Source: Candidatus Falkowbacteria bacterium
GTDB taxonomy: Bacteria; Patescibacteriota; Patescibacteriia; UBA11705; JACRDX01
DNA length: 64,000 nucleotides
NCBI GenBank assembly: GCA_043798985.1
Contig: JAZDOE010000023.1
Location: 3,626-67,625, forward strand
Direction of reading: 5' to 3'
The notes beneath the pieces are model-generated. The model did no database searches and was not told where the DNA came from. It saw only the letters and a program-made list of their open reading frames with translations. The stretch's first letter is position 1. Every line of letters begins with the position of its first letter. Positions 9,760-60,213 of the stretch are shown here, one piece after another. A program made the translations under genes and the position numbers.

Positions 9760-11293
9760 TCGTAGAGACGCAACATGCTGTGCATGTAGAGTAAGAATCG
9801 CGCCAAGCCCAACCGGCTTTGTTCATATTGGCACATTAAGAACCATTTTATATAATTGGTTATTTGCCAAACACTTGAACGGCAAATTTATCATAAGAAT
9901 TGAAGATACTGACCAGACAAGATTTGTGCCGGGCGCGCTGGAAAACCTTTTGCGCGTGATGCAGTGGGCAGATTTTGATTATGACGAAGGTCCATATCTA
10001 ACCGTTGATAACAAAATAAAAGAACGTGGCGATTTTGGCCCATATATTCAATCAAACCGTCTGGAAATTTATCAAAACTATATTCAAGATCTACTTGACA
10101 AAGGCAAAGCATACTATTGCTTTTGTAGCAAAGAACGTTTAGACGAAGTGCGCGAAGAGCAAGCAAAACAAAAACTGGCCCCAAAATACGATGGTCTTTG
10201 CAGAAAGCTCACAAGAAAACAAGCGGAAGAAAGAAAAAAACAAGGCGAAAAATATGTAATCCGTTTTAAAATGCCAGCAAACAAAAAAGTTGTTTGCGAA
10301 GATCTAATTCACGGACAAATTGTTGTGAACAGTAAAGATTTGGATGATTTTGTGTTGATAAAAGCTGACCGTTTTCCGACTTATCATTTTGCCAATATTG
10401 TTGATGATCATTTAATGAAGATTACGCATGTATTGCGTGGGGACGAGTGGATTGCCAGTTTTCCAAGACACATTTTGCTTTATGAAGCTTTTGGCTGGAA
10501 TCCGCCAGAATTTGCGCACTTACCAGTGATTTTAAATAAATCAAAGAAAAAACTAAGCAAAAGGCAAGATTCGGTTTCTGTGCAGGATTTTATTGACAAG
10601 GGCTATTTGCGCGACGCGTTAATTAATTTTATCACATTATTGGGCTGGAATTCTGGCAGTGAGCAAGAACTTTACACACGTTCCGAATTAATCAAACAAT
10701 TTTCATTGGATAATGTGCACAAAGCGCCTGCGGTTTTTGATCAGGACAAATTAGACTGGATAAATGGTGATTACATTAGAAAATTATCCGAAGACCAACT
10801 GCTGGAACTGTGCGCGCCATACTTGGAAAAAAGTGGCTTAATCAAAAAAGACAAAAATAATACTTGGTTAATCACCGAAACAATGGAAAAAGTCTCGGCC
10901 GAATATGTAAAACGCGCCATTGCGATAGAACAAGCGCGAATAAAAACATTGGCAGAAATAACAACAGCCGCGAATTTCTTTTTTCAGGAGCCTAAATACG
11001 ACCCAATGCTTTTAATCTGGAAAAACAACGCAAAAGAAACTATAAAAAACAACTTACAAAAATTTATAATCTTTTTAGACAAAATAAAAATCGCAGACTT
11101 CATGGAAAAAGAAATAGAAGAGCAAACTTTGCATTGGATTAGCAGCCAAGGGCTAAACAATGGGGAAGTGTTGTGGCCAATGCGAGCCGCGTTGTCAGGT
11201 AAAGATAAATCACCAGGGCCGTTCGCAATCGCAGGGATCCTCGGCAAGAAAAAAACAATCCAACGCCTGCAAAAAGCAGTTGAACTGTTATAA
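9740..11293 (+). CDS. gltX: glutamyl-tRNA synthetase
   Basis: HIGT (HIGH) and KLSKR (KMSKS) class I motifs; N-terminal 15 codons overlap a REP-like half site so exact start uncertain. Confidence 0.85.
   Translation: MQKQSNNRRDATCCACRVRIAPSPTGFVHIGTLRTILYNWLFAKHLNGKFIIRIEDTDQTRFVPGALENLLRVMQWADFDYDEGPYLTVDNKIKERGDFGPYIQSNRLEIYQNYIQDLLDKGKAYYCFCSKERLDEVREEQAKQKLAPKYDGLCRKLTRKQAEERKKQGEKYVIRFKMPANKKVVCEDLIHGQIVVNSKDLDDFVLIKADRFPTYHFANIVDDHLMKITHVLRGDEWIASFPRHILLYEAFGWNPPEFAHLPVILNKSKKKLSKRQDSVSVQDFIDKGYLRDALINFITLLGWNSGSEQELYTRSELIKQFSLDNVHKAPAVFDQDKLDWINGDYIRKLSEDQLLELCAPYLEKSGLIKKDKNNTWLITETMEKVSAEYVKRAIAIEQARIKTLAEITTAANFFFQEPKYDPMLLIWKNNAKETIKNNLQKFIIFLDKIKIADFMEKEIEEQTLHWISSQGLNNGEVLWPMRAALSGKDKSPGPFAIAGILGKKKTIQRLQKAVELL
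9764..9793. repeat. degenerate/half REP-like element (GTAGAGACG left arm only)
   Basis: gtagagacg followed by catgctgtgcatg mini-palindrome and tagag; preceded by AATAAT -10-like hexamer. Confidence 0.3.
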
Positions 11294-11303
11294 ATCAAAA
11301 AAA

Positions 11304-12554
11304 TTACGGTAAATAATCAAGCGGATTTACCGGAATTCCGCTGGATCGCACCTCAAAATGCAGGTGAGGACCAGTGGACAGCCAGCCTGCGCCCAAAGTA
11401 CCGGGCATTCCGCCAGACAAACCAATAATCTCTCCTTTGCTGACAAAATCATCTTCCTCAACAAAAATTTTGCTTACATGCCCATAAACGGTTGAAAGCC
11501 CGTTCGCGTGAATCAAAGCAATATAGCTGTAGCCCATACCAGCATCGCGCGCTTTTATCACATAGCCGTCAGCAGCTGCCTTAATCTGCGTTCCTTGGCT
11601 GGCGCGAATATCAACGGCCGGATGCTCAAAAATATTACGAAATGGATAAGTAGGGTCATGAAAATAGGCCGTTATTTTATTTTGCGTCACAGGCCAAATT
11701 AGATTGCTATCCTTTAACTCTGGCCGCGTTTTTTTCAAATTTTCCATTGCCAGCCGCGCCTCTTTTTCCAACTTATAAATTTCAACGTTTGCCTGATTTT
11801 GCTCTTGCTTGGCCGCCCAATATAAATCATTAAATTTTTGTTCTGACGCCTTTGTTTGTTTTAACAAATACGCCTTATAATTGATCTGCTCATTCAGATA
11901 CGCCTTGTTTTGCGCCAATTCCTCGTTCAACTTTATTAAATTTTGTTTTTTCGCGTCCAACCCGATTTTTTTGTCTTCCAAGTTTTGCTTGAGAATTTTT
12001 AATTGTTCCAATGTGCCGCGAATACTATTTTGCAAATTTTTCAAATACTCAACTTGTTGAAAAAATTCCGCGACAGAATTATATCCAAAAATTATATCAA
12101 CAAGCCCCTCCTGATCCTGCAAAAAAAACTCGCGAATCAAAATACTCAACGTGTCTTTTTTCTTCGCGATTTCATCTCCTTTCAAAACAATCTGGATCTC
12201 CGCATTGCGGATTTCAAGCTTTGTTTCTTGCAGTTCAACTCCGGTTGTTTCAATGTCTATTTTGTTTTTTGCAATCTGATTTTCCAAAATAGAAGTCTGG
12301 TTTTTTAATGTCACCAATTCCTTTTGCTTTTGCGCAATATTTTTTTTATACTGCTCGGCTTTCGCGCTTAAATCTTGAATGTACTGTTTTTTACTTTCAA
12401 TCTGTTTATTGATTTGATCCACTTCTTCTTGCGTTTGCGCGTTTGTAAAAAAAATCGGCAGCATCAGTATGCTGATCGCGCAAAATAGGGAAGTGCATTG
12501 TATTATTTTCTTCAACATCAATAAAATTATACCACACAATAGCGCGCGCGCCAA
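11304..12554 (-). CDS. M23-family peptidoglycan metalloendopeptidase with N-terminal coiled coil (EnvC/NlpD-like)
   Basis: C-terminal HPAVDI...GHVS...GPHLHFEV M23 motifs; long Q/K/E-rich heptad region; N-terminal TM. Confidence 0.75.
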   Translation of the reverse strand: MARALLCGIILLMLKKIIQCTSLFCAISILMLPIFFTNAQTQEEVDQINKQIESKKQYIQDLSAKAEQYKKNIAQKQKELVTLKNQTSILENQIAKNKIDIETTGVELQETKLEIRNAEIQIVLKGDEIAKKKDTLSILIREFFLQDQEGLVDIIFGYNSVAEFFQQVEYLKNLQNSIRGTLEQLKILKQNLEDKKIGLDAKKQNLIKLNEELAQNKAYLNEQINYKAYLLKQTKASEQKFNDLYWAAKQEQNQANVEIYKLEKEARLAMENLKKTRPELKDSNLIWPVTQNKITAYFHDPTYPFRNIFEHPAVDIRASQGTQIKAAADGYVIKARDAGMGYSYIALIHANGLSTVYGHVSKIFVEEDDFVSKGEIIGLSGGMPGTLGAGWLSTGPHLHFEVRSSGIPVNPLDYLP

Positions 12555-12558
12555 AACG

Positions 12559-12595
12559 AAAACCCCGCCTCGGCCAAATGGCCGGGCGGGGTTTT
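12559..12595. terminator. GC-rich hairpin plus T-run (intrinsic terminator) downstream of giant gene
   Basis: aaaaccccgcctcggccaaatggccgggcggggtttt; near-identical copy at 45809-45846. Confidence 0.6.
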
Positions 12596-12602
12596 CAGTC
12601 TA

Positions 12603-15600
12603 CTATTTAATGTCTAAATAACTCAACGCGCGCACAATTGCCCAATCTTTTGATGTCTTTGGCCATGCTTTATAAACGCTTCTGTATTTTGCCAATCCAA
12701 CTTTTTCCTTATTCAAATCTCTTTCTGTGATGCGCAAACGATAAGTCACCATATGCACAAACTTTTCTTCTGTCGCGTTTGTGAACTTAACAACTCGCTT
12801 AAAGATTTTCTTAAAATCTTTTGCGGCCTGCGTTTCTTTGCTGGCGACCTTTGCTGGTGTCGCATTTTGCGCGATCTTTGCCAAATTCTGCCAATCAGCG
12901 TCTGTCACTGGCAATTTGCCATAAATCTCTTTAAAGTCAGCCAATAATCCGCTGCGGTCTTTTATTGCCAATGCTTTTGTCGCGTCTGAACTGCCGTACG
13001 TCAAGAATGTCACCACTAGCCATTCAGAACTTTTCGCCGGCATTTTCCTCATTATCTTGCCGAATTCGGTAATTGACAAAATCTCTTTTGCCAAACTGCG
13101 GATTGAAGCAATTGGCAAAGTAGGCGCAGCATTGACAATTGTAATAACCGGCGCACCTGCTTTTTCAGTGATTGTAGTAGCTGGCGGCGTTATGGTCGTC
13201 ACTTTTATTGCTGGTTGCGCGAATTTTGCCACTGCTAACCAATCAGCGTCTGTCTTTGGCAATTTATTACTATTGGCTTTCTTAAATTTGACAACTAACG
13301 CGCTACGCTCTGCCATTGTCAGCGCCTTTGTCGCATCAGAACTGCCATACGTAAGAAATGTCACAACCAACCATTCAGCGCTACTTGCTGGCACTTTTTT
13401 CATTATCTTATTAAATTCAACAATAGACGCGGCTTCTTTTGCCAAATCTCGTATTGTTGCTGTTGGCAATGTTGGCGTCGCGTTAACAATCGTTTCCGCT
13501 ATCGGAGTTGTCACTACTGTTTTAGCGGCTTCGTCTGCTACTTTTTTCGTCGCTTCAACAGTCGTTAGTGTTATAAATGTTTTACCAACCCCTGCCCCAA
13601 CGTTTGACGCAGTATCCTTGCTCTTTACTTGATAATGATAAATAGTCGCTGGCAATAATCCTGTCAATTTTACAGAGTGAGAATAAGCATACGCGCCGGT
13701 TTTTTCTTCTTTACCATAACTGGACGTGCTTCCATACAACAACCATGACAATGATGACTCATTGGTTGTCCATGTGATTGTTGCTTCTGTGTCTTTTGCT
13801 GAAACAGCAATATTGCTTATAACTGGCGCGGTTGTATCCAACAAAGCTCCAGCGCCGCCACCTGGACTAGCCGGCGGAGCTGAAATCGTGATTGGAGGAC
13901 TTCCAATTCCAACGGTCGTAAAGTGAGTAATATAACCAGTGATTGTATTAGCGGCCGTGTCAATTACTTGATTGTCAAACGGAACAGGCGCGCCTAATGT
14001 TTCATCAAAATAAACCAATTTCAATGCGCTTTCTGTCGTCACACCAGCAGCTGTCATTTCCGCGTTAGTATAATGAAACACAACTTCCGCGCCATCACCG
14101 CCAAGTTGATTAATATCTCCATCTTCGCTGTCTTTGGCCGTAATATCAACAAGATTACCAACCATTGTGAATGAATCTGTTGTTGGCGCGTCAACCTCCT
14201 CTACAATAACGCTACCCGGATTTGAATCTCTGCCTAAAACAGCAGCTCCAAAATTCATTTCAACGCCAGTATTATCTGAATCATCCACTGTCCCGCCAAC
14301 AGACGGGGTCATTGTAATTGTATCTGCTTTTTTAATATCCGTGGCATCGGCTGTCAATGTCGCGTTCTTGCCTGCCTGATCTGCGCCAGCAACAACTATT
14401 GCTGAACTCATTGTTGTTGGTGCGTGCAGAGAAGCATCTGCTTTAACTGTCCAAGTTCCATCGCTTACTGGCAATGTATATGTTCCGTCTTTTTGTATTG
14501 CTGTTTTCACATATTTGCCATCGCTCGTTGAAGCAAAAACAATACCATTATCCGCTAAAGTTGTTCCATCACTTTTATAAATCGTTCCTGAAATTTCCGC
14601 TGTTTTTGCCTGCAAAGGATTATTCACAGCAACTCCTTCGCCCGTGAGATTAGCATCAAAGTCATAATCAAGATTAGCCGAAACTGTCACTTCTGCTTTA
14701 GCCGGCGTATCATAATCTTGCTGTTCAGCTTTAATCTTATACGTTCCAGCTTTTACGCTTAACGAATAATCTCCGTTACTGTCAGTTGTTGCTCGCTCTG
14801 TCAAACCTGTCGTAGTTTCTGTCACAATAATACCCGCGTTAGCGATCGCACTATTTAAAGCATCCAACACATTACCGCTCACCGTGTATAGCGTTTGTCC
14901 TGACAAATTAATCGTCACAGTTTGATTGCTTGACAAATCAACGTTAGAGGCTGGTGAAAAATCACCCAAACCATCCACAAAAACCAAAATCTTATACGTT
15001 CCAGACGGCAAACTCATTGTTTTATTAGCGCTCAAATCAACAATTGGCATGCCGCGGCGCGCTGTTCCTGTTGTACCTTTTGCTTCAACAAAACCGCGCA
15101 TAGAGCTTGTTCCGCCAGTAAATGCCAAGGTTAATGTTTTTACCTGTGTCGCGTCATAGCTAATATCTGAAGTGACGTTTTGAATTGTGACCGTGGCGCT
15201 TTGTCCGATTTCGCCATAATCTGGCGTCCAAATAGACACACGGTACGTTCCAGCGCCAACTTTAATTGAATACGCGCCGCTTGAATCTGTCATTTCATTT
15301 CTATGATAACCGCCAGACGGCCTGTCGTTTGTTGTGTCCCATGTTTCAACGCCAACCGGAATATTTGCTTGCGCGGTTCCGCCAAGCGTCACTGTGCCAG
15401 AAATTGTATAACAGGTAATTGATGCTGGCTGTATGTTCTGATTATCCTTGCTAGCATCTGTCACGAGCACTGTTTTAGTAATGACTCCGCAAGTATCAAT
15501 TCCAGAAGGCATATCAGCTGTAATTGTCCATGTTCCAGCGCCAACGCCTATAACGTAATTTCCATCTGTATCTGTGCTGGTATGCACCATCTGATAACTT

Positions 15601-21398: not shown

Positions 21399-21445
21399 AC
21401 TTTAAGATTTTAATTTTTTGTAAAAAATATTTAAAGTTATTATTT

Positions 21446-21700: not shown

Positions 21701-21752
21701 ATTATATTAGTTTATTATAGCACAACGAAAATCAACAATGCCTGTGCATAAG

Positions 21753-22730
21753 TTATGCTGATAATGGATGAAATTTTTTGTGCGCGTCTTCTGCGTAACG
21801 ATCAGACACATTCACATAGCGCGTTGTGGTTTGCAACGATTCATGCCCCAGCAAAATCTGAATGGCAGCCGGGTTTGCGCCTTGTTCAGCCAGTAGCGTG
21901 GCAAACGCATGCCGCAAAGAATGCGCGGAAATCGGCGTGTTAATGCCCAAAAGCTCGCGATAGTGTTTTATTCGCTCTTGCAAATAATTTGTTGAAACTT
22001 TTTTGTTCTTTTTAGCGCTGTTTTTACCACGCAAAGGTAAAAATAAGTATTCGCCACCGATTTCTCGTTTTGTCAAATAATCATTCAAATACTTTTGGCT
22101 ACGTTTAGTTAAATAAACAAACCGCTCTTTGCGGCCTTTACCCTTGATAAAAATGCGGCCGGTTTTATCAATTTGCGCGATTTTAAGGTTTAATAATTCA
22201 GAAATGCGCATTCCCGTGGAGAAAAGCGTTTCCAGCATTGCGCGGTTGCGGCTCGCGACAATTTCGTTTTGCTCAAATTGATTGGGAAACTCAATCAATT
22301 TGACGATATCTTCAAATTCCGCGAGCCGCAGATGCTTTTTGTCTGTTTTTGCAAGTTTAATCATATCCGGCGCAACAGGGCAATCATAATCCATTTCAAT
22401 CAAATACTTAAAATAAGAACGTAGCGCTGAAAGCATGCGATTCGTTGTATAACTGCTCAAATGTTTTTCCGTGTCATTTCCACCAGCTGTCTTGCGATCA
22501 TGAGAAGCGAGATAGGCTTTATAATTCAAAATTGTTTTTTTATCAATCTTTTCAAACGATGCCTCAACTTCCTGCAAAAAATTTAAAAAAGTTTTTAAAT
22601 CGCATTCATAATTATAAATTGTTTCAGCAGAATAATTATTTGTTTGCATGTTCAATAAAAAATCATCAAGGCAGGGAAGGGTTAGCTTGTAGCTTGTAGG
22701 TTGTAGGTCGGATTTTTTTTGTCCAGCCAT
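21753..22730 (-). CDS. tyrosine site-specific recombinase, XerC/XerD-like
   Basis: C-terminal HSLRHAFATLLAEQGANPAAIQILLGHESLQTTTRYVNV (R-H-R-Y catalytic set), core-binding N domain. Confidence 0.8.
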   Translation of the reverse strand: MAGQKKSDLQPTSYKLTLPCLDDFLLNMQTNNYSAETIYNYECDLKTFLNFLQEVEASFEKIDKKTILNYKAYLASHDRKTAGGNDTEKHLSSYTTNRMLSALRSYFKYLIEMDYDCPVAPDMIKLAKTDKKHLRLAEFEDIVKLIEFPNQFEQNEIVASRNRAMLETLFSTGMRISELLNLKIAQIDKTGRIFIKGKGRKERFVYLTKRSQKYLNDYLTKREIGGEYLFLPLRGKNSAKKNKKVSTNYLQERIKHYRELLGINTPISAHSLRHAFATLLAEQGANPAAIQILLGHESLQTTTRYVNVSDRYAEDAHKKFHPLSA

Positions 22731-22793
22731 AAGTGAGTCAAAGGGTTATTATACTCACTTTATATTATAATAAAAACAACAACGCGTGGCAAG

Positions 22794-22821
22794 TTAACCT
22801 GTTAACAAATTAACCTGTTAA
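22794..22821. promoter_or_regulatory. direct repeat 2x TTAACCTGTTAA (each internally palindromic) upstream of recombinase gene; candidate recombinase/regulator site
   Basis: ttaacctgttaa caaa ttaacctgttaa, 64-90 bp upstream of xerC-like start. Confidence 0.25.
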
Positions 22822-22828
22822 TATGTCC

Positions 22829-22856
22829 GTAGAGACGAAACATGTTCCGTCTCTAC
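22829..22856. repeat. REP-like palindrome GTAGAGACG-N10-CGTCTCTAC
   Basis: gtagagacgaaacatgttccgtctctac; same arms as copies at 40522, 59536, 60186. Confidence 0.6.
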
Positions 22857-38340: not shown

Positions 38341-39502
38341 TCATTCCGACCTCACTTTAGTGAGGGAGGAATCCCTTGTAAAGACTTTGCGAATGACAAT
38401 CGCCGCTCTTATCCGCGACATTAACCCCAAATAAAATTCCAAATTGTTCAACGTTGCCAATCTCTGCGCTAATGGTTCTTTAATCATAAACAAATACCGC
38501 AAGTACGCGCGCGAATAATTTTTTAATACATCAATTTTGCTATCAGCATTAATCGGCGTTTCATCAAATTTAAACTTTTCATTGCAAATATTCAGCTGAT
38601 CATAAAATTTTTCGTCTTTCATCACGTTCACGTGCTTTTTAAAAACAAACAACCGACCATGCCGCGCCTCTCTTGTTGGAATCACGCAATCAAACATATC
38701 AACTCCAAATTTAACCGCTTGAACAATTTGCTCTGGCCGACCAACGCCCATCAAATATCTCGGCTTGTTTTTCGGCAATAATTCGTCAATATATTCCAAA
38801 ACCTTGTACATTTCTTCAACTGATTCGCCTACCGCCAATCCGCCGATCGCATATCCGTCGAAATTGATTTTTGCCAAATCTTGCGCGCTTTTTTCACGCA
38901 AATCGCGTTCCAATCCGCCTTGAACAATGCCAAAAATCAATGGCCGTTTTTTCAATTTTACCCTGTCATTCGACAGGGTCTTGCGAAAATAATCAAAACT
39001 TTTTTTCGCCCACAAAGAAGTCAGTTCAACCGATTGTTCCAGATATTGGCGCTCGGCCGGCAAACCAACGCACTCGTCCAAAACCATTAAAATATCCGAA
39101 TCAATCGCCCGCTGAATTTTTATGGACTCTGCGGGCGACATAAAAAATTTCTTACCATCAATATGTGATTGAAATTCAACGCCGGCCTCGCGCAACTTAC
39201 GAATTTTTGCCAACGAAAAAACTTGGAATCCGCCGCTATCAGTCAGAATCGGCTTGTCCCAGTTCATAAAATGGTGCAAGCCGCCAAGTTTTTTCAGTTC
39301 TTTTTTCGCCGGGTCGCAACATTAAATGATACGTGTTTCCTAAAATAATTTGCGCGCCAAGTTGATTCAAATCCTCGGTTGTCAAAGTTTTCAGCACACC
39401 TCGCGTGGCAATTGGCATAAAACACGGGGTTTCAATTTCACCCCTCCGCGTTTTCAACATCCCTAACCTTGCCTTTTTGTTGTTGTTCAGTACTTTAAAC
39501 AT
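38341..39502 (-). pseudogene. tgt: queuine tRNA-ribosyltransferase gene interrupted by a +1 frameshift in a T6/A6 homopolymer
   Basis: N-terminal 87-aa ORF (..GNTYHLMLRPGEK) and 312-aa ORF (..[30 protein letters not shown]..) join in the A6 run at 39301-39306; removing one A restores [17 protein letters not shown]. Confidence 0.75.
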
Positions 39503-39564
39503 ATTGTCCTCATTATACTGATTATTCTCTCAAATTTCAACCCAATTTAACCTAAAATTATTTA

Positions 39565-39593
39565 TTGACAACCCCGCGCGTATTTGCTAAACT
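39565..39593 (+). promoter_or_regulatory. near-consensus sigma70 promoter for the GC-rich cassette gene
   Basis: TTGACA-N17-TAAACT, then GGAGGGG SD 4 nt before ATG 39631. Confidence 0.5.
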
Positions 39594-39630
39594 AATCGCA
39601 TAAATGTTCTTCAACAACCGGAGGGGTGTC

Positions 39631-40392
39631 ATGGACAAGAAGGCGTTCAAAGTCGCGGTCTCGTGTTTCATCGGTGCTGGAATCGGCGCGCTGGTCGCGC
39701 TGGAAATGAACCAGTGGTTCTGGTGGGTGGGATTGCTCGTCGGCGGGTTCGTCGGCTACCTGTCGTACGAATGGCGAACGGTTCTGCACGCAATTCCCGC
39801 GGCATTCAAGGCAGCTGAACGTGCGGTGTTCAACCGTCCAAAATACTTTTGGACAGCGATTGGATTGAGCATTATTGGCATCGTGGAATACTCTGCGATA
39901 TTTGGATCGCTAATGGGTTTCATAGCTCCAAATACTTCAACGTACATCTCCGTCTGGATTTGTACCACCTGCTTGTTCGCGATAATATTTTCATTCACGT
40001 ACTTTCACGATGAGATGCAGAATGAGCTCCGCAAACTCCTTGTGGCTGGACATCTGCGGCGCACGGTAACAATCGTGATCTTGCCCATTGGAATCTCGTG
40101 GCTGTTGTGGAGGTTCATCATCAACACGCCGCGGATGGTTTGCGCGATCGGGCGAGGCATCGTTCTTATCGCAAAGTTCATCAAGCGATTCGGATGGGAG
40201 ATGTTCATCAGAATCCATTCCGAGATTCGCTTGCTCTGCGGCATTGACGCGATGATCGGCGCGGCAATCGGCTTTTTCAGCGGTTCGGTGCTAATCGGCG
40301 CTTTCGCCGGAGCAGCGTTCGGCGCGCTCAACTATGCGGTCATCACCGTCCGGTGGCTGATCCCAGCCGGACACATCCAACGGACAACGTGA
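39631..40392 (+). CDS. GC-rich polytopic membrane protein of unknown function (likely horizontally acquired)
   Basis: 254 aa from MDKKAFK; ~6 hydrophobic helices; codon usage dominated by G/C-ending codons unlike neighbours; strong SD; start at 39604 in ORF track rejected (lies 4 nt after -10). Confidence 0.6.
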   Translation: MDKKAFKVAVSCFIGAGIGALVALEMNQWFWWVGLLVGGFVGYLSYEWRTVLHAIPAAFKAAERAVFNRPKYFWTAIGLSIIGIVEYSAIFGSLMGFIAPNTSTYISVWICTTCLFAIIFSFTYFHDEMQNELRKLLVAGHLRRTVTIVILPIGISWLLWRFIINTPRMVCAIGRGIVLIAKFIKRFGWEMFIRIHSEIRLLCGIDAMIGAAIGFFSGSVLIGAFAGAAFGALNYAVITVRWLIPAGHIQRTT

Positions 40393-40421
40393 CGCAACGC
40401 CCCAATAGGGCAACATTCTGC

Positions 40422-40452
40422 GGAGCGGTTTGAAACAAACCGCTCCTTTTTT
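40422..40452 (+). terminator. intrinsic terminator of the GC-rich gene
   Basis: ggagcggtttg-aaa-caaaccgctcc followed by tttttt. Confidence 0.6.
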
Positions 40453-40521
40453 ATTTTCACGGGTGCCACATATCCACACCCCTCAATTTTTCATAAAATT
40501 TTCAAAATGGTATTTATAATG

Positions 40522-40549
40522 GTAGAGACGAGATATATCTCGTCTCTAC
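40522..40549. repeat. REP palindrome, perfect 28-mer
   Basis: gtagagacgagatat|atctcgtctctac, preceded by TATAAT. Confidence 0.65.
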
Positions 40550-40563
40550 ATACGCACAAAAAC

Positions 40564-40602
40564 AAAAAATCCCGATCCAAGCATGGATGATCGGGATTTT
40601 TT
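40564..40602. terminator. A-run/hairpin/T-run bidirectional terminator-like structure between the two palindromes
   Basis: aaaaaatcccgatcca agca tggatgatcgggatttttt. Confidence 0.45.
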
Positions 40603-40607
40603 GTCCT

Positions 40608-40655
40608 GTAAAGACGAGATACCCGCCTGCCGTCGGGCAGGTATCTCGTCTTTAC
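40608..40655. repeat. 48-nt compound palindrome (REP variant GTAAAGACGAGATAC...GTATCTCGTCTTTAC with inner cctgcc-gtcg-ggcagg hairpin)
   Basis: outer 15-bp perfect arms; inner GC hairpin matches the MITE core palindrome cctgccggcgggcagg. Confidence 0.55.
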
Positions 40656-41880: not shown

Positions 41881-42377
41881 ATTCCCATTTCCCCCATTTT
41901 CTCCGCGATATTATTGCTTTCTTTTTCTGTGTCTATCTTAAATTTATTCCATTTATCACTGGCCCAAATTTCCAGCCGGTTATACAAACCAGCAATTACA
42001 ACCTTCTTTTTTAAACCAGCATATTCACGTAAATATTCCGGCACAATAATTCTTCCCAATTTATCAATCGCGACATCCATTGCGCCCGCCAACATGAGGC
42101 GCGAAAAAGCCCGGCTGTTTGCCTGGCTTATTGGTAATGATGCTATCTTTTTTGCCAATACTGTCCACTCTGATTTTGGATAAACAAAAAGACAGTTGTC
42201 CAATCCGCGCGTCACAACTGCCCCACTTTTTAAACTAACGCGAAACTTGGCTGGCAAAGAAATTCTGCCTTTTTCATCAATTGAAAAATTAAATTCTCCA
42301 ATAAACATATTTCCACTATTTCCCACTAATATCCACCTACAACCATTATATTCCACTTCTACATATCGGTCAACCAC
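41877..42377 (-). CDS. mraZ: division/cell wall cluster transcriptional regulator MraZ
   Basis: two tandem DUF-MraZ halves each with DxxGR motif (DEKGRISLP; DKLGRIIVP). Confidence 0.8.
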   Translation of the reverse strand: MVDRYVEVEYNGCRWILVGNSGNMFIGEFNFSIDEKGRISLPAKFRVSLKSGAVVTRGLDNCLFVYPKSEWTVLAKKIASLPISQANSRAFSRLMLAGAMDVAIDKLGRIIVPEYLREYAGLKKKVVIAGLYNRLEIWASDKWNKFKIDTEKESNNIAEKMGEMGI

Positions 42378-42439
42378 AAATCACCACCAAAAACCATTTA
42401 AAATTAGATTGATTTTCAGGGTTGTGGATAAATAAAAAA

Positions 42440-47694: not shown

Positions 47695-47708
47695 AGCCGT
47701 TAAAATTC

Positions 47709-47833: not shown

Positions 47834-47852
47834 TGCTTCGTGTTTTTTATTA

Positions 47853-49031: not shown

Positions 49032-49033
49032 AT

Positions 49034-50494: not shown

Positions 50495-50501
50495 AAGAAA
50501 A

Positions 50502-50978: not shown

Positions 50979-50981
50979 AAA

Positions 50982-51329: not shown

Positions 51330-51331
51330 AC

Positions 51332-51685: not shown

Positions 51686-51687
51686 AT

Positions 51688-52398: not shown

Positions 52399-52425
52399 AA
52401 AAACCCCTCCTTATTTTTAAATATT

Positions 52426-53064: not shown

Positions 53065-53069
53065 AATTT

Positions 53070-53528: not shown

Positions 53529-53531
53529 ATA

Positions 53532-53915
53532 TTATGTCTTTTCCAATTTACGCTTACCGCTACCCATTGTTCTTCGCACATTGCCGCGCACTGTGCGGCA
53601 ATTTGTCTTTGTTCGTTGCCCATGAACCGGCAAATGTCTTATATGTCTGATTCCAGTATAACATTTAATATCTTTCAGTCTTTTGATATTGCCCAAAACT
53701 TCGCGCCGCAAATCGCCTTCAACCTTCTCTCCCTTTTCAATTTCATTACGCAGCGCATTTACCTGCTCTTCTGTTAACTCTTTGACCCTCACATTTTCAA
53801 TCTTCAATTTAGCCAAAAGCACTTTTGCCTTTGGGTGACCAATACCATAAACATAAGTAAGCGCGCATGCCACTCTTTTGTTTTCTGGTAAATTCACGCC
53901 AGCAATTCTAGCCAT
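53532..53915 (-). CDS. rpsM: 30S ribosomal protein S13
   Basis: [11 protein letters not shown]-terminus, C-terminal basic tail. Confidence 0.85.
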
Positions 53916-53986
53916 AACATTATAAAATTTGGAATTTCTAATTTTAAATTTTTAATCAATTTTAAAATCTGAATTTTTAAACATTT

Positions 53987-54103
53987 TTAACCTTGTCTCT
54001 GTTTGTGTTTGGCCGTTGTTGGGCAAATAACAAATAAGCGCCCTTTTCTGCGCACAATTTTACAATCTTTACAGCGCTTTTTAACAGAAGCTTGCACTTT
54101 CAT
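53987..54103 (-). CDS. rpmJ: 50S ribosomal protein L36
   Basis: translation [38 protein letters not shown]; not in the ORF track (<60 aa). Confidence 0.75.
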
Positions 54104-54105
54104 AA

Positions 54106-54327
54106 TTATGATAATCTATAAACTATTCTGCCCTTAGTAAGGTCGTATGGAGTCAACTGAACTTTTACTTTATCGCCAACGCCAATGCGAATTCTGTTCA
54201 TGCGCAACTTGCCGGATAAATGAACAAGCACCGCGTGCCCATTTTCTAGCGTCACGCGAAACATTGCATTTGGCAAAATCTCTTGAATAGTCCCAAGCAA
54301 CTCCAAAACGTCTTGTTTTTTTGTCAT
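54106..54327 (-). CDS. infA: translation initiation factor IF-1
   Basis: S1-like OB fold, 73 aa; infA-rpmJ-rpsM order. Confidence 0.85.
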
Positions 54328-54453
54328 GTTTAAATAAGTGATTCCAGTTTAGCTTATTAATAATGGTGTGTCAATAGTTTATGGACACTCAATCATTTTA
54401 GCTATTTTTTTTAAAAAAGTCAAACTAAAAACAGCCGCATTGTGGATGAATGT

Positions 54454-56202
54454 TTAACGGTAAAACATTTTATTCAGTTCTACGAAGCTAAATTCAACAA
54501 TACACGGACGACCATGCACGCAGGTGAACTTTTTGGTTTTAAACAATTGATCAATCAATGCCATTGCTTCCATGCCAGACAGCTCGTCTCCGAATTTTAT
54601 CGCGCTTTTACAACTCATCATTTTAAAAATGTCGTCAGCAATCTCTAAAATTTTCTCCGCGCTGGTTTTTTCGCTCAAAATCTCATCTCCAACTATTTTC
54701 AGAATCTCCTGAATAATTTCGCTCGGCTCCAGCTTGGACAATAGCGCGGGCGATTGACGAATAAGAAAAGTGTTGGCGCCAAATTCATCAATTTCAAAAC
54801 CGAGCTTTGTGAATGTGTCGCGGTTTTGCCGCAAGATATTGGCTTCAATAAGCGCCAATTCAATACTTTGAGGAAATAACATTTGTTGGCTTAAAATTTT
54901 GCCCGCGCTCCATTCAGCAGAAATTTTTTCATATTGAAGCCGCTCTGATGCTGCGTGCTGGTCAATAATTTTGATTCCTTTCTCGTCGCTGACAATCAAA
55001 TATGCTTTGTTAATCTGGCCAAGATATTGATATGGCCATTCTGATTTTCGTTCTGGAAAATTCAACAACCCCGCGTCTATTGGTCTTTGTTGCGCGCCAA
55101 CGTTGGCAGTGGGAAAATCAATCCTCTTCTCTGCAAAATTTAACCGTTCAAATCCATTTCGCAAACGTGGCGCTTGTGTTGTTTCAGGTGCCAACGGCAC
55201 AAACGATATCTTGGTTATCAACTCTGATTTATCAATCACGTCAGCCGCGCCGCGATAAAACGCCTGATAAATTAAATTGGGTTCAGAAAAACGAACTTCC
55301 AATTTCCGCGGATGAACATTTACATCAATTTTCGCAGGATCAACCGATAAATTTAACAAATAGATCGGATGTAAATCTTTTGGAATCATTTGTCCAAAAG
55401 AATCTTTGATTGTTTTTGAAATGACGAATTCATTAACAGGACGAGAATTAACAAACAAAAACTGCAGTTTTTTATTTTGCCGCGCCACCTGCGGTTTGCC
55501 AATAAATCCGGAAATTTTCACGTACAAAGTTTCATATTCAACTGCCAAAAGTTGGCCGCTGATTTCTTTTCCCAAAACCGCTTCGGCGCGCTCTAATAAA
55601 TCTGCCGCGACGCTAAAACGATAAACCTCGCGGCCATTATGAACAAGCGTCCAATCAATTTTCGGATGCGCCAAGGCATAATTCAAAAACAAATCAACAA
55701 TATGATTATATTCGTTTGCCGGCGCCTTTAAATATTTTTGTCGCGCCGGCATATTGTAAAAAAGATTTTGGATAGTGATTGTTGTTCCGACCGGACAGCC
55801 GGCATCTTCAACGCGGCGATTGCCATTTTCAACGATCAGCTTTGTTCCGCTGACATCTGCTTCTTGCCGCGACAACAATGAAAATTGGCTGACGCTTGCA
55901 ATACTCGCGAGCGCCTCGCCGCGAAAGCCCATTGTTTTGATATTGAATAAATCTTCGGCGCTCGCCAATTTGCTCGTGGCATGTTGTTCAACGCTCAACA
56001 AAACATCCTCGCGATTCATTCCGCAACCATTATCAATAATTTTAATTTCATTGATTCCGCCATTAACAATTTCAACAATAATTTTTAGCGCGCCCGCGTC
56101 AATTGAGTTTTCAACCAATTCTTTAACAACAGAAGCTGGCCGTTCAATCACCTCGCCGGCTGCGATTTGGTTTATCAATTCCTGCGGTAAAATTTTTATC
56201 AT
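54454..56202 (-). CDS. mutL: DNA mismatch repair protein MutL
   Basis: GHKL ATPase N-terminus (ELVENSIDAGA, DNGCGM), C-terminal dimerisation domain. Confidence 0.85.
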   Translation of the reverse strand: MIKILPQELINQIAAGEVIERPASVVKELVENSIDAGALKIIVEIVNGGINEIKIIDNGCGMNREDVLLSVEQHATSKLASAEDLFNIKTMGFRGEALASIASVSQFSLLSRQEADVSGTKLIVENGNRRVEDAGCPVGTTITIQNLFYNMPARQKYLKAPANEYNHIVDLFLNYALAHPKIDWTLVHNGREVYRFSVAADLLERAEAVLGKEISGQLLAVEYETLYVKISGFIGKPQVARQNKKLQFLFVNSRPVNEFVISKTIKDSFGQMIPKDLHPIYLLNLSVDPAKIDVNVHPRKLEVRFSEPNLIYQAFYRGAADVIDKSELITKISFVPLAPETTQAPRLRNGFERLNFAEKRIDFPTANVGAQQRPIDAGLLNFPERKSEWPYQYLGQINKAYLIVSDEKGIKIIDQHAASERLQYEKISAEWSAGKILSQQMLFPQSIELALIEANILRQNRDTFTKLGFEIDEFGANTFLIRQSPALLSKLEPSEIIQEILKIVGDEILSEKTSAEKILEIADDIFKMMSCKSAIKFGDELSGMEAMALIDQLFKTKKFTCVHGRPCIVEFSFVELNKMFYR

Positions 56203-58796
56203 ATTTTATCAATTCTCCGTTTCAAATCTGCAATTTTTTCCAAAGCTTTCATTGGCGTCATATTATCAACATCCAAATCCAACAACTCTTTTTCAACCAC
56301 GCTTTGTTGCGGTGTTTGTTCAATCCCGCCTGCCTGTCCGGTAGGCAGGCCAACGGCGGGACCCAATGGCAACTCAAATTGCGCGGCGTTTTTCTTGATT
56401 TTTGTTTTTGATTTTTGTTCAAGCTCAACAAGAATCTGCTCTGCGCGCTCTGTGATTTCATTTGGCAAACCAGCGAGCCGACCAACTTCAATTCCATAAC
56501 TTTTGCTTGCCGCGCCTTTTATTATTTTATGCAAAAAAACAACGCGACCATTATTTTCGCTTACAGCCACGCAAAAATTTTGGATGCGCTGAAATTTTTC
56601 AGCCAAATCTGTGAGCTCATGGTAGTGCGTGGCAAACAAAGTGCGCGCTTTTAATTTTTCATGCAAATATTCAACAACCGCCCACGCGATACTCAACCCG
56701 TCATACGTGGCTGTTCCGCGCCCAAGCTCATCCAAAATAATGAGCGAACGGCTGGTCGCGTTATTCAAAATATTTGCCATTTCTTGCATTTCAACCATGA
56801 ACGTTGAGCGACCCAATGTTAAATTGTCCGATGCGCCGACGCGCGTAAAAATCCTGTCTACAATACCGACGCGCGCGCTGATGGCCGGCACAAAACAACC
56901 AACCTGCGCCAGCAAAACAATCAGCGCGGTTTGGCGCAGATAACTGGATTTGCCGCTCATATTTGGTCCGGTCAGCAAAATTATTTCATTGTCACTTGAA
57001 TCAAGCTGCAAATCATTTGGCACAAACGGCTCGCTCTGATTTTTTTCAATGACAGGATGACGTCCCGCGCGAATTTCAATTATATTGCTATCATCAATTG
57101 TTGGCTGTGAATAATTATTTTCTTTTGCCAAAATCGCGAATCCGAGCAACACGTCAATATGCGCAATGGCGCTCGCGATTTCTTTAATTTCCTGAAAACG
57201 CGCGCTTACTTTTTCCACAATTTCATTAAAAATTCTTAGCTCGCGCTCTTTAATTTCTATTTCAGCTGTCAGAACTTTTTGTTCATATTCTTTCAGCTCC
57301 GGAATCACGAACCGCTCCGCGTTAACCAACGTCTGCTTGCGAATATAATCAGCCGGTACCGCGGCTAAATTTGAATTGCTAATTTCAATATAATAACCAA
57401 AAATTTTATTATAACTCACTTTCAAAGAGCTTATGCCGGTGCGCGCAATTTCTTGCTGCTGCAAATCTTTCAGCCATTCTTTCCCGCCGAACGCAATTTT
57501 TCGCAGATCGTCAAGTTTAGGGTCATAACCTTCTGCGATCATTCCACCTTCGTTAATGATTGCCGGTGGATTTTCTTTAATGCTGGTTTTAATCAAATTA
57601 ATAATTTCCAAAAGTTCAATAATTTTGGCGGCCGCGGCAACGCAATTTTCCATTGTCGCTAAAATATTTTTTATCGCGGGCACAAACTCCAAACTGGTTT
57701 TCAAGTTTAACAAATCCCGCGCGTTGCCGCGGCCGCAGCCCAATCTTCCAATTAAACGTTCAATGTCCGAAACTTTTGTCAACAACTCTGCCAAATCTTT
57801 TGCCGCGCTAAAATTTTTATAAAAATCAGCCACAACATTGAGCCGGTGATTAATCGCGGCAACATTTTTCAGCGGACACAACAACCAGCGACGTAGCAAT
57901 CTGGCACCCATTGCCGTTGAAGTTTTATCAATAACATTTATCAAACTCGCGTCAGACCCGCGGCTATTGGAAAACAGCAACTCCAAATTCGTGATCGCTG
58001 TCTCGTCCAAAAGCATGCGGTCATCCAACGCGTATCGCCGAATTTTTATGATGTGCGTCAAACTATTTTTTTGCGTGTCTTTCAAATAACTCAACAAACC
58101 GCCTGCCGCGAAAACTCCAGCGTCAAAATTGTCTATGCCAAAACTGCTCAAATCGTGGACCTTAAAATGGTCAACCAACAACCGCCGTGGATTTTCAAAG
58201 CCAGCCAAGTCAAAAACCGAAGCATTTTTTAATGAAGCGACAAATGCCGCGAGGTCAATATTATTTGCCAACGAATTATTAACAATAAACTCTGACGCAG
58301 ACAATCGCGCAAGTTCATTTTTCAAAACATCAAACTCAACAATCTCGCCAACTTCAAACTCGCCAGTGGTCAAATCGCAAATCGCGACACCAAACCTGCT
58401 GTTTTTAAAATAAATACTTACAATAAAATTGTTGCTTTTGCGTTCCAAAACTCGTTCGTCCAAAATCGTGCCGGCTGTGATAATGCGAACAACTTTGCGG
58501 TCAACAATGCCGCGGCCAACCTCGCCAACCTGATCGCAAACAGCCACGCGCTTACCAGCTTGCGTGAGTTTGGCAATGTATGTTTCTGCCGCGTGGTGCG
58601 GAAAACCGCACATTGGCATTTCCTTTTCTGTCTCGCGATAGCGCGCGGTCAAGGCAATATTTAAAATCGGCGCTGCGGTTTTCGCGTCATCGCCCAGCAA
58701 TTCATAAAAATCGCCCATTCTAAAAAGAAGCAGCTCGTTTTTGTGTTGTTCTTTAATTTGCCAATATTGTCGCAACACCGGCGTTAAATCGTTCAT
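56199..58796 (-). CDS. mutS: DNA mismatch repair protein MutS
   Basis: mismatch-binding N-terminus, GPNMSGKSS Walker A, DELGRGT; 865 aa. Confidence 0.9.
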   Translation of the reverse strand: MNDLTPVLRQYWQIKEQHKNELLLFRMGDFYELLGDDAKTAAPILNIALTARYRETEKEMPMCGFPHHAAETYIAKLTQAGKRVAVCDQVGEVGRGIVDRKVVRIITAGTILDERVLERKSNNFIVSIYFKNSRFGVAICDLTTGEFEVGEIVEFDVLKNELARLSASEFIVNNSLANNIDLAAFVASLKNASVFDLAGFENPRRLLVDHFKVHDLSSFGIDNFDAGVFAAGGLLSYLKDTQKNSLTHIIKIRRYALDDRMLLDETAITNLELLFSNSRGSDASLINVIDKTSTAMGARLLRRWLLCPLKNVAAINHRLNVVADFYKNFSAAKDLAELLTKVSDIERLIGRLGCGRGNARDLLNLKTSLEFVPAIKNILATMENCVAAAAKIIELLEIINLIKTSIKENPPAIINEGGMIAEGYDPKLDDLRKIAFGGKEWLKDLQQQEIARTGISSLKVSYNKIFGYYIEISNSNLAAVPADYIRKQTLVNAERFVIPELKEYEQKVLTAEIEIKERELRIFNEIVEKVSARFQEIKEIASAIAHIDVLLGFAILAKENNYSQPTIDDSNIIEIRAGRHPVIEKNQSEPFVPNDLQLDSSDNEIILLTGPNMSGKSSYLRQTALIVLLAQVGCFVPAISARVGIVDRIFTRVGASDNLTLGRSTFMVEMQEMANILNNATSRSLIILDELGRGTATYDGLSIAWAVVEYLHEKLKARTLFATHYHELTDLAEKFQRIQNFCVAVSENNGRVVFLHKIIKGAASKSYGIEVGRLAGLPNEITERAEQILVELEQKSKTKIKKNAAQFELPLGPAVGLPTGQAGGIEQTPQQSVVEKELLDLDVDNMTPMKALEKIADLKRRIDKI

Positions 58797-58803
58797 ATCA
58801 TTT

Positions 58804-58830
58804 GTACAGACGAGATATATCTCGTCTCTC
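58804..58830. repeat. REP-like palindrome, slightly degenerate ends
   Basis: gtacagacgagatat|atctcgtctctc; core identical to 40522 copy. Confidence 0.5.
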
Positions 58831-58862
58831 TCATATTAACAAACCCGCGCAAAAAATCTATA

Positions 58863-58890
58863 TTGACAAAATATAAAAAAAGATTAAGAT
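58863..58890 (+). promoter_or_regulatory. sigma70-like promoter of second GC-rich cassette gene
   Basis: TTGACA-N16-TAAGAT, GGAGG SD 6 nt before ATG 58920. Confidence 0.4.
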
Positions 58891-58919
58891 AAAGGGGCAC
58901 GTAACCATGGAGGTCGCAA

Positions 58920-59408
58920 ATGGATCTGTTAGAACTCGTACCGCCCTCCAACGTGCAAACCACGTTCGGAGAAATCCCAAAAGGCAGGCTCGCCATCGTG
59001 GCAGTTCTCGTCCTTGCATCAGGCCTAATTTGGGGAGCGATCATGTTGGTTCCGTCGGTGAATGCGTTTGCCGTAGCTCTGTCCCAGACCGATGACGGCG
59101 CAACAGGTACACTCGCAAAAATCGCCATTGTAGTACTTTGCGCGATTCCAATCGTCGCGATATTCCACAGTTGGCGACTATACAGAACCATCGTCACAAA
59201 CAAAATCGTTCCGCTTGTGTATCTCAATGTTGTAAACATTGAGCGCGATATGATTCACGTAAAATCGTACTGTGGACGAACGCTCGCTGTTCCGCGGTCG
59301 CAAGTGCAGGATAAGCGCGCCGCATGGGATCACTTGGGCTACTTAGAAATCAGCGGCACGACCAACAAACCCAAAGCAGAGCTGCGAGATTTCTACGCAG
59401 AACGATGA
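58920..59408 (+). CDS. GC-rich small membrane protein, possibly bacterial PH-domain (YdbS/bPH_2-like)
   Basis: 162 aa; two TM helices then ~75-aa soluble domain; GC-rich codon usage unlike flanks. Confidence 0.45.
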   Translation: MDLLELVPPSNVQTTFGEIPKGRLAIVAVLVLASGLIWGAIMLVPSVNAFAVALSQTDDGATGTLAKIAIVVLCAIPIVAIFHSWRLYRTIVTNKIVPLVYLNVVNIERDMIHVKSYCGRTLAVPRSQVQDKRAAWDHLGYLEISGTTNKPKAELRDFYAER

Positions 59409-59535
59409 ACGCGCAACAAACCTTGTCAAAAATTTTGACAAGGTTATTTTTTTATTATCTGCGCGCCACCTAGAATTTCAAGGGTGTCACCTATTCACAA
59501 CCCTGCATTTCATATACAAAAATGCGCATTATATT

Positions 59536-59563
59536 GTAGAGACGGGGCATGCCCCGTCTCTAC
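59536..59563. repeat. REP palindrome, perfect 28-mer, immediately 5' of RAYT
   Basis: gtagagacggggcat|gccccgtctctac; preceded by TATATT. Confidence 0.7.
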
Positions 59564-59572
59564 CCGAACAAT

Positions 59573-60112
59573 ATGCGCAATGAATTATTATTTCAAAATC
59601 AATTTAGAATTCCTTCTACACGGCTCCAATATTGGAACTACGCCCAAGACGGGTGGTATTTTGTTACAATTTGCACGCACAAACGAGAATGCTTTTTGGG
59701 GGAAATAAATAACTACGAACCGCAACTATCCCCCGTGGGACAAATCGCTGAAAAATGTTGGTTAGAAATTCCGCAACATTTTCCAAATGTTGAATTAGAG
59801 ACATTCGTCATCATGCCAAATCACATACATGGAATAATTACAATTAATTGCACGGAGCAGCAAACAAACAAAAATAATATTGGACAAAATTTACCGCTTC
59901 CACAATCATTGTCTGCGGTAATTGGTTCTTTCAAATCCGCCGTTTCAAAAATTATCAACAGAACACATCCAAAAATTCCCTTTCAATGGCAAACAAGATT
60001 TTACGACCGTATCATTCGCAATCGCGAATCAATGTACAAAATCAGCCAATACATTCTAAACAACCCTATAAAATGGGAATTGGACAGGAATAATCCAAAA
60101 AATGTTTATTAA
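59573..60112 (+). CDS. REP-associated tyrosine transposase (RAYT; IS200/IS605-like Y1 HUH enzyme)
   Basis: YFVTICT..., HUH motif MPNHIHGII, C-terminal WQTRFYDRIIRN...YILNNPIKW catalytic-Tyr block; single copy flanked by REPs; start moved from 59549 because that ATG lies inside the REP. Confidence 0.8.
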   Translation: MRNELLFQNQFRIPSTRLQYWNYAQDGWYFVTICTHKRECFLGEINNYEPQLSPVGQIAEKCWLEIPQHFPNVELETFVIMPNHIHGIITINCTEQQTNKNNIGQNLPLPQSLSAVIGSFKSAVSKIINRTHPKIPFQWQTRFYDRIIRNRESMYKISQYILNNPIKWELDRNNPKNVY

Positions 60113-60185
60113 TCTAACATTGAGGGCAACAATTATACACAACCCTAAATTTGGACAATATAATTAAAAATTTTATAAATTAAAT

Positions 60186-60213
60186 GTAGAGACGTAGCAT
60201 GCTACGTCTCTAC
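60186..60213. repeat. REP palindrome, perfect 28-mer, 3' of RAYT
   Basis: gtagagacgtagcat|gctacgtctctac. Confidence 0.7.

Follow-up and report, generated by a model that had tools for sequence, protein, structure and literature searches.

We analysed a 64,000-nucleotide stretch of the Candidatus Falkowbacteria contig JAZDOE010000023.1 (the window), in which a sequence-only reading had described a dispersed family of repetitive extragenic palindromes (REPs), and find that one locus in it is very probably a REPtron: a gene for a group 4 REP-associated tyrosine transposase (RAYT), flanked by its cognate double-foot REPs and with more REP copies scattered nearby. The decisive feature, which the sequence-only reading overlooked, is the RAYT open reading frame (ORF) between the palindromes at 59536 and 60186; this placement makes the locus a documented REPtron rather than a new composite. 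Together, the REP family and the RAYT are a known kind of system, and the sole addition beyond it is a companion box, whose role we infer. The central features of the locus are:

59573..60112, plus strand: RAYT (TnpA_REP) gene, predicted to encode a 179-amino-acid Y1 HUH transposase of subclass 2.4, equal to Bertels group 4
59536..59563, no strand assigned: left flanking double-foot REP, GTAGAGACG-GGGCATGCCC-CGTCTCTAC, 9 nt before the RAYT start codon
60186..60213, no strand assigned: right flanking double-foot REP, GTAGAGACG-TAGCATGCTA-CGTCTCTAC, the only hairpin 3' of alaS (60257..62131, minus strand)

Judged by its sequence, the ORF 59573..60112 is a REP-associated tyrosine transposase of subclass 2.4, or group 4. 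It matches Pfam Y1_Tnp (E=6.7e-7) and carries the motifs MPNHIHGI, WQTRFYDRIIRN (QWQTRF) and QYILNNP, the columns of which are invariant in 23 homologues. A profile of the RAYT and 22 homologues has a sole match in the PDB, E. coli TnpA_REP (4ER8, E=4.7e-7), and residues D145, R146 and R149 align with the region of the GTAG-contacting E100, H101 and R104 of that structure. The signatures NH[IFV]H, WQ and YIxNNP mark subclass 2.4 (Table 1 of Quentin et al. 2018, PMC6006769), known as RAYT group 4 in the scheme of Bertels et al. 2017 (PMC5581495). The gene is single-copy within the window and lies next to alaS, as does its homologue in L127 (63% identity); here and below, L-numbers denote loci or contigs from other genomes, and identities compare their RAYT homologues with the RAYT of the window. 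Between the two flanking REPs there is no tnpB-sized ORF, and the only ORFs of at least 90 amino acids listed there belong to the RAYT frame.

Several points weigh against the REPtron reading. The match to the NCBIfam model REP_Tyr_transpos (NF047646; E=3.6e-17, 62.6 bits) stays under the curated cut-off of 80, as do those of the homologues in L083 and L022. This model was probably drawn from other RAYT groups, and the shortfall weakens equivalog, not superfamily, membership. Cleavage, strand transfer and REP mobilisation would have to be extrapolated from RAYT groups 2 and 3 (PMC8266576), and our copy counts and distribution are those of the 64-kb window.

The REP itself is a 28-nt palindrome, GTAGAGACG-N10-CGTCTCTAC, with four such copies in the window (22829, 40522, 59536 and 60186), all of which have the feet GTAG...CTAC. 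The palindrome is perfect at 40522, 59536 and 60186 and has a single central mismatch at 22829. With at most one mismatch allowed, the GTAGAGACG arm is matched 17 times against 3.3 expected, a count reached by none of 100 shuffles; this enrichment, with palindromes at the sites named, bears out the proposal of a dispersed REP family. An inverted-repeat search of the window finds the same sites, the 59536 copy being 14+14 nt and 100% complementary. The centres vary among copies, yet each is self-complementary (AAACATGTTC, AGATATATCT, GGGCATGCCC and TAGCATGCTA), and folding of the window REPs as single-stranded DNA gives stems of 12-14 bp with 4-nt loops (z -4 to -8). Apart from the two flanking REPs, the family in the window consists of:

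40522..40549, no strand assigned: REP with centre AGATATATCT, in a convergent intergenic region and followed by a bidirectional terminator at 40562-40604
40608..40655, no strand assigned: long REP variant GTAAAGACGAGATACC...GGTATCTCGTCTTTAC, 48 nt with GTAAAGACG arms, overlapping the stop of an ftsL-like ORF by 4 nt
22829..22856, no strand assigned: REP with centre AAACATGTTC and one mismatch, between ftsQ-like and xerC/D-like genes, without companion box
58804..58831, no strand assigned: degenerate REP GTACAGACG-AGATATATCT-CGTCTCTCT, 8 nt 5' of the start codon of mutS (minus strand)
9762..9791, plus strand: left-arm-only REP remnant GTAGAGACGCAACATG...GTAGAG at the 5' end of the gltX reading frame

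Deviant feet are found at 40608 (GTAA...TTAC) and 58804 (GTAC...CT). The 40608 variant folds at -20.1 kcal/mol (z=-7.95) and has GACGAGATA in common with the 40522 copy. All copies are intergenic or at gene edges, as had been stated; the exception by reading frame is the remnant in gltX, which belongs to the only frame of that gene with a standard start. ATG 9740 is the sole standard in-frame start upstream of the conserved RIAPSPTG, the Pfam domain begins at residue 17 of this ORF, and with the remnant the 5' end gains some 10 codons (RRDATCCACR) ahead of RIAPSPTG. The sites of the earlier copy list are confirmed, except that this half copy starts at 9762, not 9764.

The surroundings of some copies have features of their own. 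Just 5' of the 22829 REP, at 22790-22822, there are two direct copies of the 12-mer TTAACCTGTTAA spaced 4 nt apart; the 12-mer is itself an inverted repeat (TTAAC..GTTAA), and the pair, which sits between the REP and the start of the xerC/D-like integrase gene (21753..22730, minus strand), looks like a tandem operator. At 38341-40655, the dcw cluster is broken after the ftsL-like ORF: the minus-strand order is mraZ, mraW, ftsL, the long REP variant, the bidirectional terminator and the REP module, after which an unannotated plus-strand gene (39604..40392) and then tgt stand in place of ftsI.

The family extends far beyond this genome. When 185,579 species genomes were scanned for GTAGAGACG-N6-30-CGTCTCTAC, at least 120 loci were returned (138 matches listed), and among the matches listed are Bacteroidota, Nostocales and other cyanobacteria, Chloroflexota, Ignavibacteria, Rhodothermales, Acidobacteriota, Desulfuromonadales, Planctomycetota and Patescibacteria. 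Of these 138 matches, 94 have a gap of 10 nt and 32 a gap of 11 nt, and almost every centre is palindromic. A chance origin was rejected, as about 9 matches per gap length are estimated in 596 Gb, compared with the 126 of 138 listed matches at 10-11 nt with their palindromic centres; dozens of different centres and the presence of the REP in finished isolate genomes rule out a sequencing-adaptor artefact. Literature searches with the arm strings GTAGAGACG and CGTCTCTAC gave primer matches only.

Linkage to RAYT genes recurs in these genomes. Without selection for it, a RAYT homologue is present in 6 of 120 loci listed, each time with the REP inside its stop-to-stop frame or at most 4 nt away. 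REPs flank the RAYT gene in the window, L121, L123, L127, L132 and L022, the last with REP doublets on its borders, while L131 is readable on the right flank only. In L083 (1170-1330), a REP lies in frame within the linker between the HUH motif and the catalytic Tyr, bracketed by short tandem repeats, and the linker peptides CRDVACNVST, GRDEALPRLYD and VETRHGVSLQ of several RAYT homologues are the three reading frames of the REP. One-arm tandem duplications at some loci resemble the left-arm remnant at 9762.

Repetition around the REP takes further forms. The in-frame linker REPs are often bracketed by tandem repeats at the protein level, for example HDS x6 and SNEQ x3. Beside a complete REP, an arm plus a few bases may be repeated 2-10 times (L030, L045, L066, L090, L112, L024 and L128; for instance GTAGAGACGTTGCATT x3 in L066), and many Bacteroidales and cyanobacterial REPs are embedded in arrays of 7-20 nt tandem repeats (L047, L083, L106 and L114). 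L123 has at 671-719 a long double-foot variant, GTAGAGACAATTC...GAATTGTCTCTAC, of 49 nt with a GC-rich centre, which is built like the 40608 variant of the window and lies within a called Peptidase_U32 gene (312..1625, minus strand).

Covariation was assessed in 58 distinct 28-mers from many phyla, in which the nine outer pairs are fixed by the search pattern and hence uninformative. All five inner pairs show compensatory changes, in keeping with the earlier proposal that selection acts on hairpin structure and not on the sequence at the centre. Cells with double changes number 131, compared with 39.6 in column shuffles (none of 500 as high), and 96.7% of cells are paired, compared with 24-53% when partners are slid. 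The complementarity runs through the very centre, with positions 13-16 complementary in 49 of 58 variants and positions 14-15 in 45 of 58, and nearly all variants have AT or GC as their central dinucleotide. Since the innermost bases are unable to pair in a hairpin, selection for folding alone leaves the perfection of the palindrome at its very centre unaccounted for. Quasipalindrome correction by template switching is an established process. We infer that one arm has repeatedly been copied from the other, by template switching or inverted-dimer collapse, besides selection for folding. The left and right REPs have the same centre within L121, L123, L127 and L132, whereas centres differ between these genomes, and this likeness within and unlikeness between genomes points to homogenisation within a genome. 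Unlike in these relatives, the two flanking REPs of the window differ in their centres.

How would such a palindrome be used? If it works like the E. coli, Stenotrophomonas and Marinomonas enzymes, the RAYT would bind the REP as a folded single strand, for example on the template of the lagging strand, read the GTAG foot and the lower stem, and then cut and rejoin nearby. As the REP is self-symmetric, both strands would give an identical hairpin of 12-14 bp on a GTAG foot. Recognition of foot and lower stem would explain both the constancy of GTAGAGACG across phyla and the freedom of the upper stem to vary wherever pairing is preserved.

The match to subclass 2.4 REPtrons (PMC6006769) is close. 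In that paper, the subclass is abundant among Cyanobacteria and Bacteroidetes with a scattered presence in other groups, its REPs are long or "double-foot" (5' GT[AG]G, 3' C[TC]AC; a fully paired basal stem of 7-20 nt and a loop of 2-5 nt), and it alone has in-frame REP insertions in the tnpA_REP gene; for a subclass 2.4 gene of Chloroflexus aggregans, the supplement gives the REP GTAGAGACGCACGGCCGTGCGTCTCTAC. The window shares with this subclass the RAYT signatures and the class size of about 180-190 amino acids, the double-foot ends, the 12-bp stem and 4-nt loop, and the REPs flanking the gene, with five further copies in 64 kb. The in-frame linker REPs of its relatives, the arm GTAGAGACG...CGTCTCTAC, which is listed in the 2018 supplement, and the spread over Cyanobacteria, Bacteroidota and scattered other phyla agree as well. 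The window differs in its host, a Candidatus Falkowbacteria metagenome-assembled genome from a group that we did not find discussed in the accessible text of PMC6006769 or PMC5581495, and in the conserved 35-nt box that borders the gene left and right in its sub-lineage, of which that text gave no description.

Better-known systems are further away. E. coli REPs and bacterial interspersed mosaic elements (BIMEs) with their group 2 TnpA_REP (4ER8; Messing 2012, Ton-Hoang 2012, Corneloup 2021) likewise have a GTAG-foot hairpin, a Y1 HUH enzyme gene between REPs, extragenic dispersed copies and presumed single-strand recognition. However, E. coli REPs are imperfect and bulged, with a single foot and one strand as substrate, whereas the two strands of a window REP are identical; BIMEs, which bind integration host factor (IHF) and gyrase, are built of alternating REPs and defined linkers, an anatomy that has no counterpart in the window. 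Insertion sequences of the IS200/IS605 family (IS608, ISDra2) share the Y1 HUH fold, same-strand hairpins that border the gene, and a conserved sequence 5' of each hairpin. Unlike them, the window locus has no tnpB, its enzyme carries RAYT-specific motifs, the gene is present once in the window, and hairpins are dispersed without it. The GTAG-tagged REP superfamily of Di Nocera et al. 2013 (PMC3733652), in which the tag is at one end only, offers another parallel: GTAG stem-loops, complementary stem changes in sub-families, RAYT linkage, and copies between convergent or unidirectional genes, with intragenic and gene-edge REPs also described. In contrast to that superfamily, for which GTAG repeats were unreported in Bacteroidetes, the window REP is tagged at both ends, and its internal CGTC is the tag of the other superfamily of that paper.

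Two readings of the palindromes compete with cognate RAYT substrates. The sequence-only reading had proposed a BIME-like portable promoter or terminator module, composed of a small hairpin, a -10 box and a REP, and the raw counts in the window seem to favour it: an A/T-only hexamer lies within 10 nt 5' of 5 of 7 copies (intergenic background 0.26), and a hexamer matching TATAAT in at least five of six positions precedes 4 of 7 (background 0.078). A -10-like hexamer before each copy, as had been claimed, is too strong a statement. Because the REP is symmetric, the reverse complement of its downstream flank serves as a built-in control, and in 12 oriented modules from six related REPtrons the TATAAT match is found in 6 of 12 upstream flanks compared with 4 of 12 mirror-image flanks. 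Among 129 REPs from other genomes, the -10-like rate is 6.6% beside the REP and 3.7% at 30-70 nt away, and the only consistent flank feature is a T at -1 (52%), which merely extends the palindrome. The box alignment, by reading, holds no -35 at a consistent 17 nt before the hexamers. Moreover, if a -10 ended 0-4 nt before GTAG, transcription would begin within the left arm and the RNA would be unable to form the hairpin. With the spacers between box and REP at 68-92% A+T, we conclude that the hexamers are AT-rich flanks and spacer, not a specific promoter element.

As to termination, a terminator scan of 58600-60400, covering the REPs at 58804, 59536 and 60186, flags only 60186 on the minus strand, and the copies outside that scan (9762, 22829, 40522 and 40608) have no T-run by reading. 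Only one copy, 60186 read on the minus strand, is a plausible terminator, being the sole hairpin downstream of alaS; L127 has a separate canonical terminator at this position. Effects on the neighbouring alaS, ftsL-like, mutS and gltX genes are, in general, deduced from position only. The module idea can further point to TACACA-17-TATAAT upstream of the 60186 REP, and to the 40522 module, which is followed by a terminator and could in principle be a small transcription unit. Against it, most REP copies lack a T-run, the small hairpin shows no covariation, boxes and REPs occur separately, and there is no Rfam family match. Nor does the anatomy resemble a BIME: alternating REP pairs with linkers are absent, each REP is symmetric in itself, and all box-REP modules have the same orientation, on the plus strand. 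We therefore give this composite module only a slim chance. That the palindromes might instead be double-stranded operators for a dimeric DNA-binding protein, unrelated to transposition, would suit their two-fold symmetry, which is perfect even at the central bases, and is nevertheless extremely unlikely given that the central 10 nt vary freely among copies within one genome, that the same arms are found in many phyla, that RAYT genes are tightly linked to them to the point of in-frame insertions, and that half-arms are duplicated in tandem.

What, then, of the companion box? Its copies in the window are:

59482..59504 (conserved block about 59478-59513), plus strand: left box GGGTGTCACCTATTCACAACCCT, 31 nt before the left REP
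60124..60146, plus strand: right box GGGCAACAATTATACACAACCCT, a weaker copy, 11 nt after the RAYT stop and 39 nt before the right REP
40461..40483, plus strand: solo box GGGTGCCACATATCCACACCCCT, 38 nt before the 40522 REP and with no RAYT nearby
42418..42430, minus strand: 3' half of a solo box, TATCCACAACCCT, including a perfect TTATCCACA, upstream of mraZ and without REP

The full 23-mer, for which no chance match is expected, is present without mismatch at 40461 and 59482. The 13-mer TATYCACAMCCCT recurs at 40471, at 59492, with one mismatch at 60134, and as a minus-strand copy at 42418-42430, for which an estimated 0.01 or so exact matches in the window would arise by chance. An inverted copy near mraZ had been noted before; it exists, at this last position rather than at 42408-42419. 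Across genomes, the consensus covers about 35 nt, TCAC-GGGTGYCAC-N-TTATCCACA-ACCCT-ACATTT, and as read from the alignment it is TCAC-GGGT..CA.-TTATCCACA-ACCCT-A.ATTTCA. Six related REPtrons share one layout (box, 31 nt, REP, RAYT, box, 31-39 nt, REP, all in direct orientation), found outside the window on the contigs of the closest RAYT homologues, in L121 (60% identity), L123 (58%), L127 (63%) and L132 (55%), and in L131 (55%) on the right side only. Orthologous left boxes are present in L121, L123 and L132, and right boxes in L121, L123, L127, L131 and L132. Left boxes are closer to the left boxes of other genomes than to their own right box, and the same holds for right boxes, which argues that the whole arrangement is ancestral to this RAYT sub-lineage. 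The distant RAYTs of L128, L133 and L022 have the same REP without the box.

The earlier view of the box as a conserved partner of some REP copies stands, with the matches at 40461-40483 and 59482-59504 and the weaker one at 60124-60146. The two elements are separable, however: boxes without REP occur upstream of mraZ in the window and in a divergent intergenic region at L121:1085, and REPs without box at 22829, 58804, 9762 and 40608. The idea that the motif is itself a short hairpin finds little in its favour, the stem being a GGGT/ACCC pairing of 4-6 bp only, with no compensatory change in an alignment of 11 sequences. A metagenome scan with the full box gave only 2 matches, in unrelated contexts without REP and at about the number estimated by chance, and no description of the box was found in PMC3733652, PMC6006769, PMC5581495 and PMC8266576. 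We regard it as a real, separate element and a lineage-specific addition to the REPtron.

Some observations belong beside the boxes. Between the solo half-box and the mraZ start, at 42340-42400 on the minus strand, GTGG boxes are spaced about 10 nt apart (tgGTGGtgatttGTGGttg ... aaGTGGaa); they fit a MraZ operator and are what had earlier been termed mraZ repeats. In L121, another palindromic repeat (gtcattgcgagcg...cgcaatgac, present twice at 1160-1290) lies between the solo box and the next gene and is unrelated to the GTAG REP. Throughout the window (1-64000), GC skew is negative and genes are mostly on the minus strand; the RAYT gene and all three box-REP modules are on the plus strand, against the prevailing gene orientation.

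For the role of the box, the starting point is a terminator upstream of the RAYT gene:

59419..59445, plus strand: intrinsic terminator of the upstream gene 58920..59408, with a 12-bp stem followed by ATTTTTTTAT

It sets the RAYT transcription unit apart and places the RAYT promoter between itself and the start at 59573, a stretch that holds box, spacer and REP; in L123, the gene upstream of the RAYT is divergent. By reading, the box carries a -35-like T(T/C)CACA with (T/A)AAAAT or TATAAT at 15-18 nt in about 7 of 12 copies, TACACA-17-TATAAT is flagged at 60136-60164, from the right box onwards, and the solo boxes are sense-oriented upstream of genes (mraZ and L121:1085). Conserved GGGT and CCCT flank the hexamer, and the CCCT falls in the would-be promoter spacer, so that an operator fits better than a bare promoter. 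We therefore favour the box as the RAYT promoter/operator region, with the right-hand and solo copies as its outward-facing duplicates, a proposal that we consider about equally likely to be right or wrong. What speaks against it is that a conserved -10 at 17±1 nt from TYCACA is absent when all box copies are considered, that the right-hand and solo boxes have no gene to drive, and, as regards a bare promoter, that the CCCT within the spacer is so strongly conserved. In a bolder version, to which we give little credence, the box would be a previously undescribed cis-element of a Patescibacteria-associated RAYT lineage that forms an autonomous module with the REP, either as a promoter or as a site bound by DnaA or another regulator.

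Alternatively, the box could be part of the single-stranded DNA substrate of the RAYT, like the ends of IS200/IS605 elements, with the segment from left box to right REP as the mobile unit and the 40461 module as a mobilised end. Several features are consistent with this: each end carries box and REP in direct orientation, matching the two ends of IS200/IS605, the left spacer is fixed at 31 nt across RAYTs 58-60% identical to that of the window, the REPtron has different gene neighbourhoods in the window, L121, L123 and L132, and there is a solo module away from the RAYT. It is nonetheless unlikely, as the right-hand spacer varies (31-39 nt), boxes occur without REP at mraZ and L121:1085, and RAYTs outside the sub-lineage (L022, L128 and L133) use the same REP without the box. 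In addition, the negative GC skew makes the plus strand, which bears the boxes, the leading-strand template, not the strand expected to be single-stranded, and the alaS-adjacent site common to the window and L127 suggests vertical inheritance rather than hopping. Another thought is that the box core TTATNCACA is a DnaA box that couples RAYT expression or REP processing to replication initiation: by reading, TTATNCACA is perfect in 8 of 13 boxes and has one mismatch in 5, and four are the canonical TTATCCACA. We judge this very unlikely. The window has 5 TTATNCACA sites compared with 3.0 expected, a number that 16 of 100 shuffles reach, the CCCT and GGGT outside the 9-mer are equally conserved and are not explained by DnaA alone, and the same bases can be read as the -35-like T(T/C)CACA. 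A sigma-54 site (TGGCAC-N5-TTGC), an IHF site (WATCAANNNNTTR) and a MraZ box (GTGG repeats with 10-nt spacing) were compared with the box by eye only and rejected for misfits in spacing or bases.

Elsewhere in the window, an Rfam scan at gathering thresholds identified only a ribosomal protein L10 leader (RF00557; 46834-46965, minus strand; 44.7 bits against a gathering score of 44), and permissive E-values added only sub-threshold hairpin look-alikes.

Finally, we would like to consider what the locus means for the RAYT family. Recognising the repeats as the cognate REPs of a RAYT in the same window, of a class catalogued in 2017-2018, removes a false lead: they are not a new promoter/terminator cassette. 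Palindromy through the central bases suggests that the apparent covariation stems in part from one arm serving as template for the other. The constancy of GTAGAGACG across phyla next to a changing yet paired upper stem amounts to a natural mutational scan, which suggests the part of the REP that is read by group 4 RAYTs. The conserved box on both sides of the gene offers a possible route to the RAYT promoter and any regulator. If the box is a promoter, REP-headed transcripts would be the RAYT mRNA on the left and short REP RNAs on the right and at 40461; if it is a regulator site, RAYT activity would be tied to replication. Either way, it would provide the first clue to the control of a group 4 RAYT.

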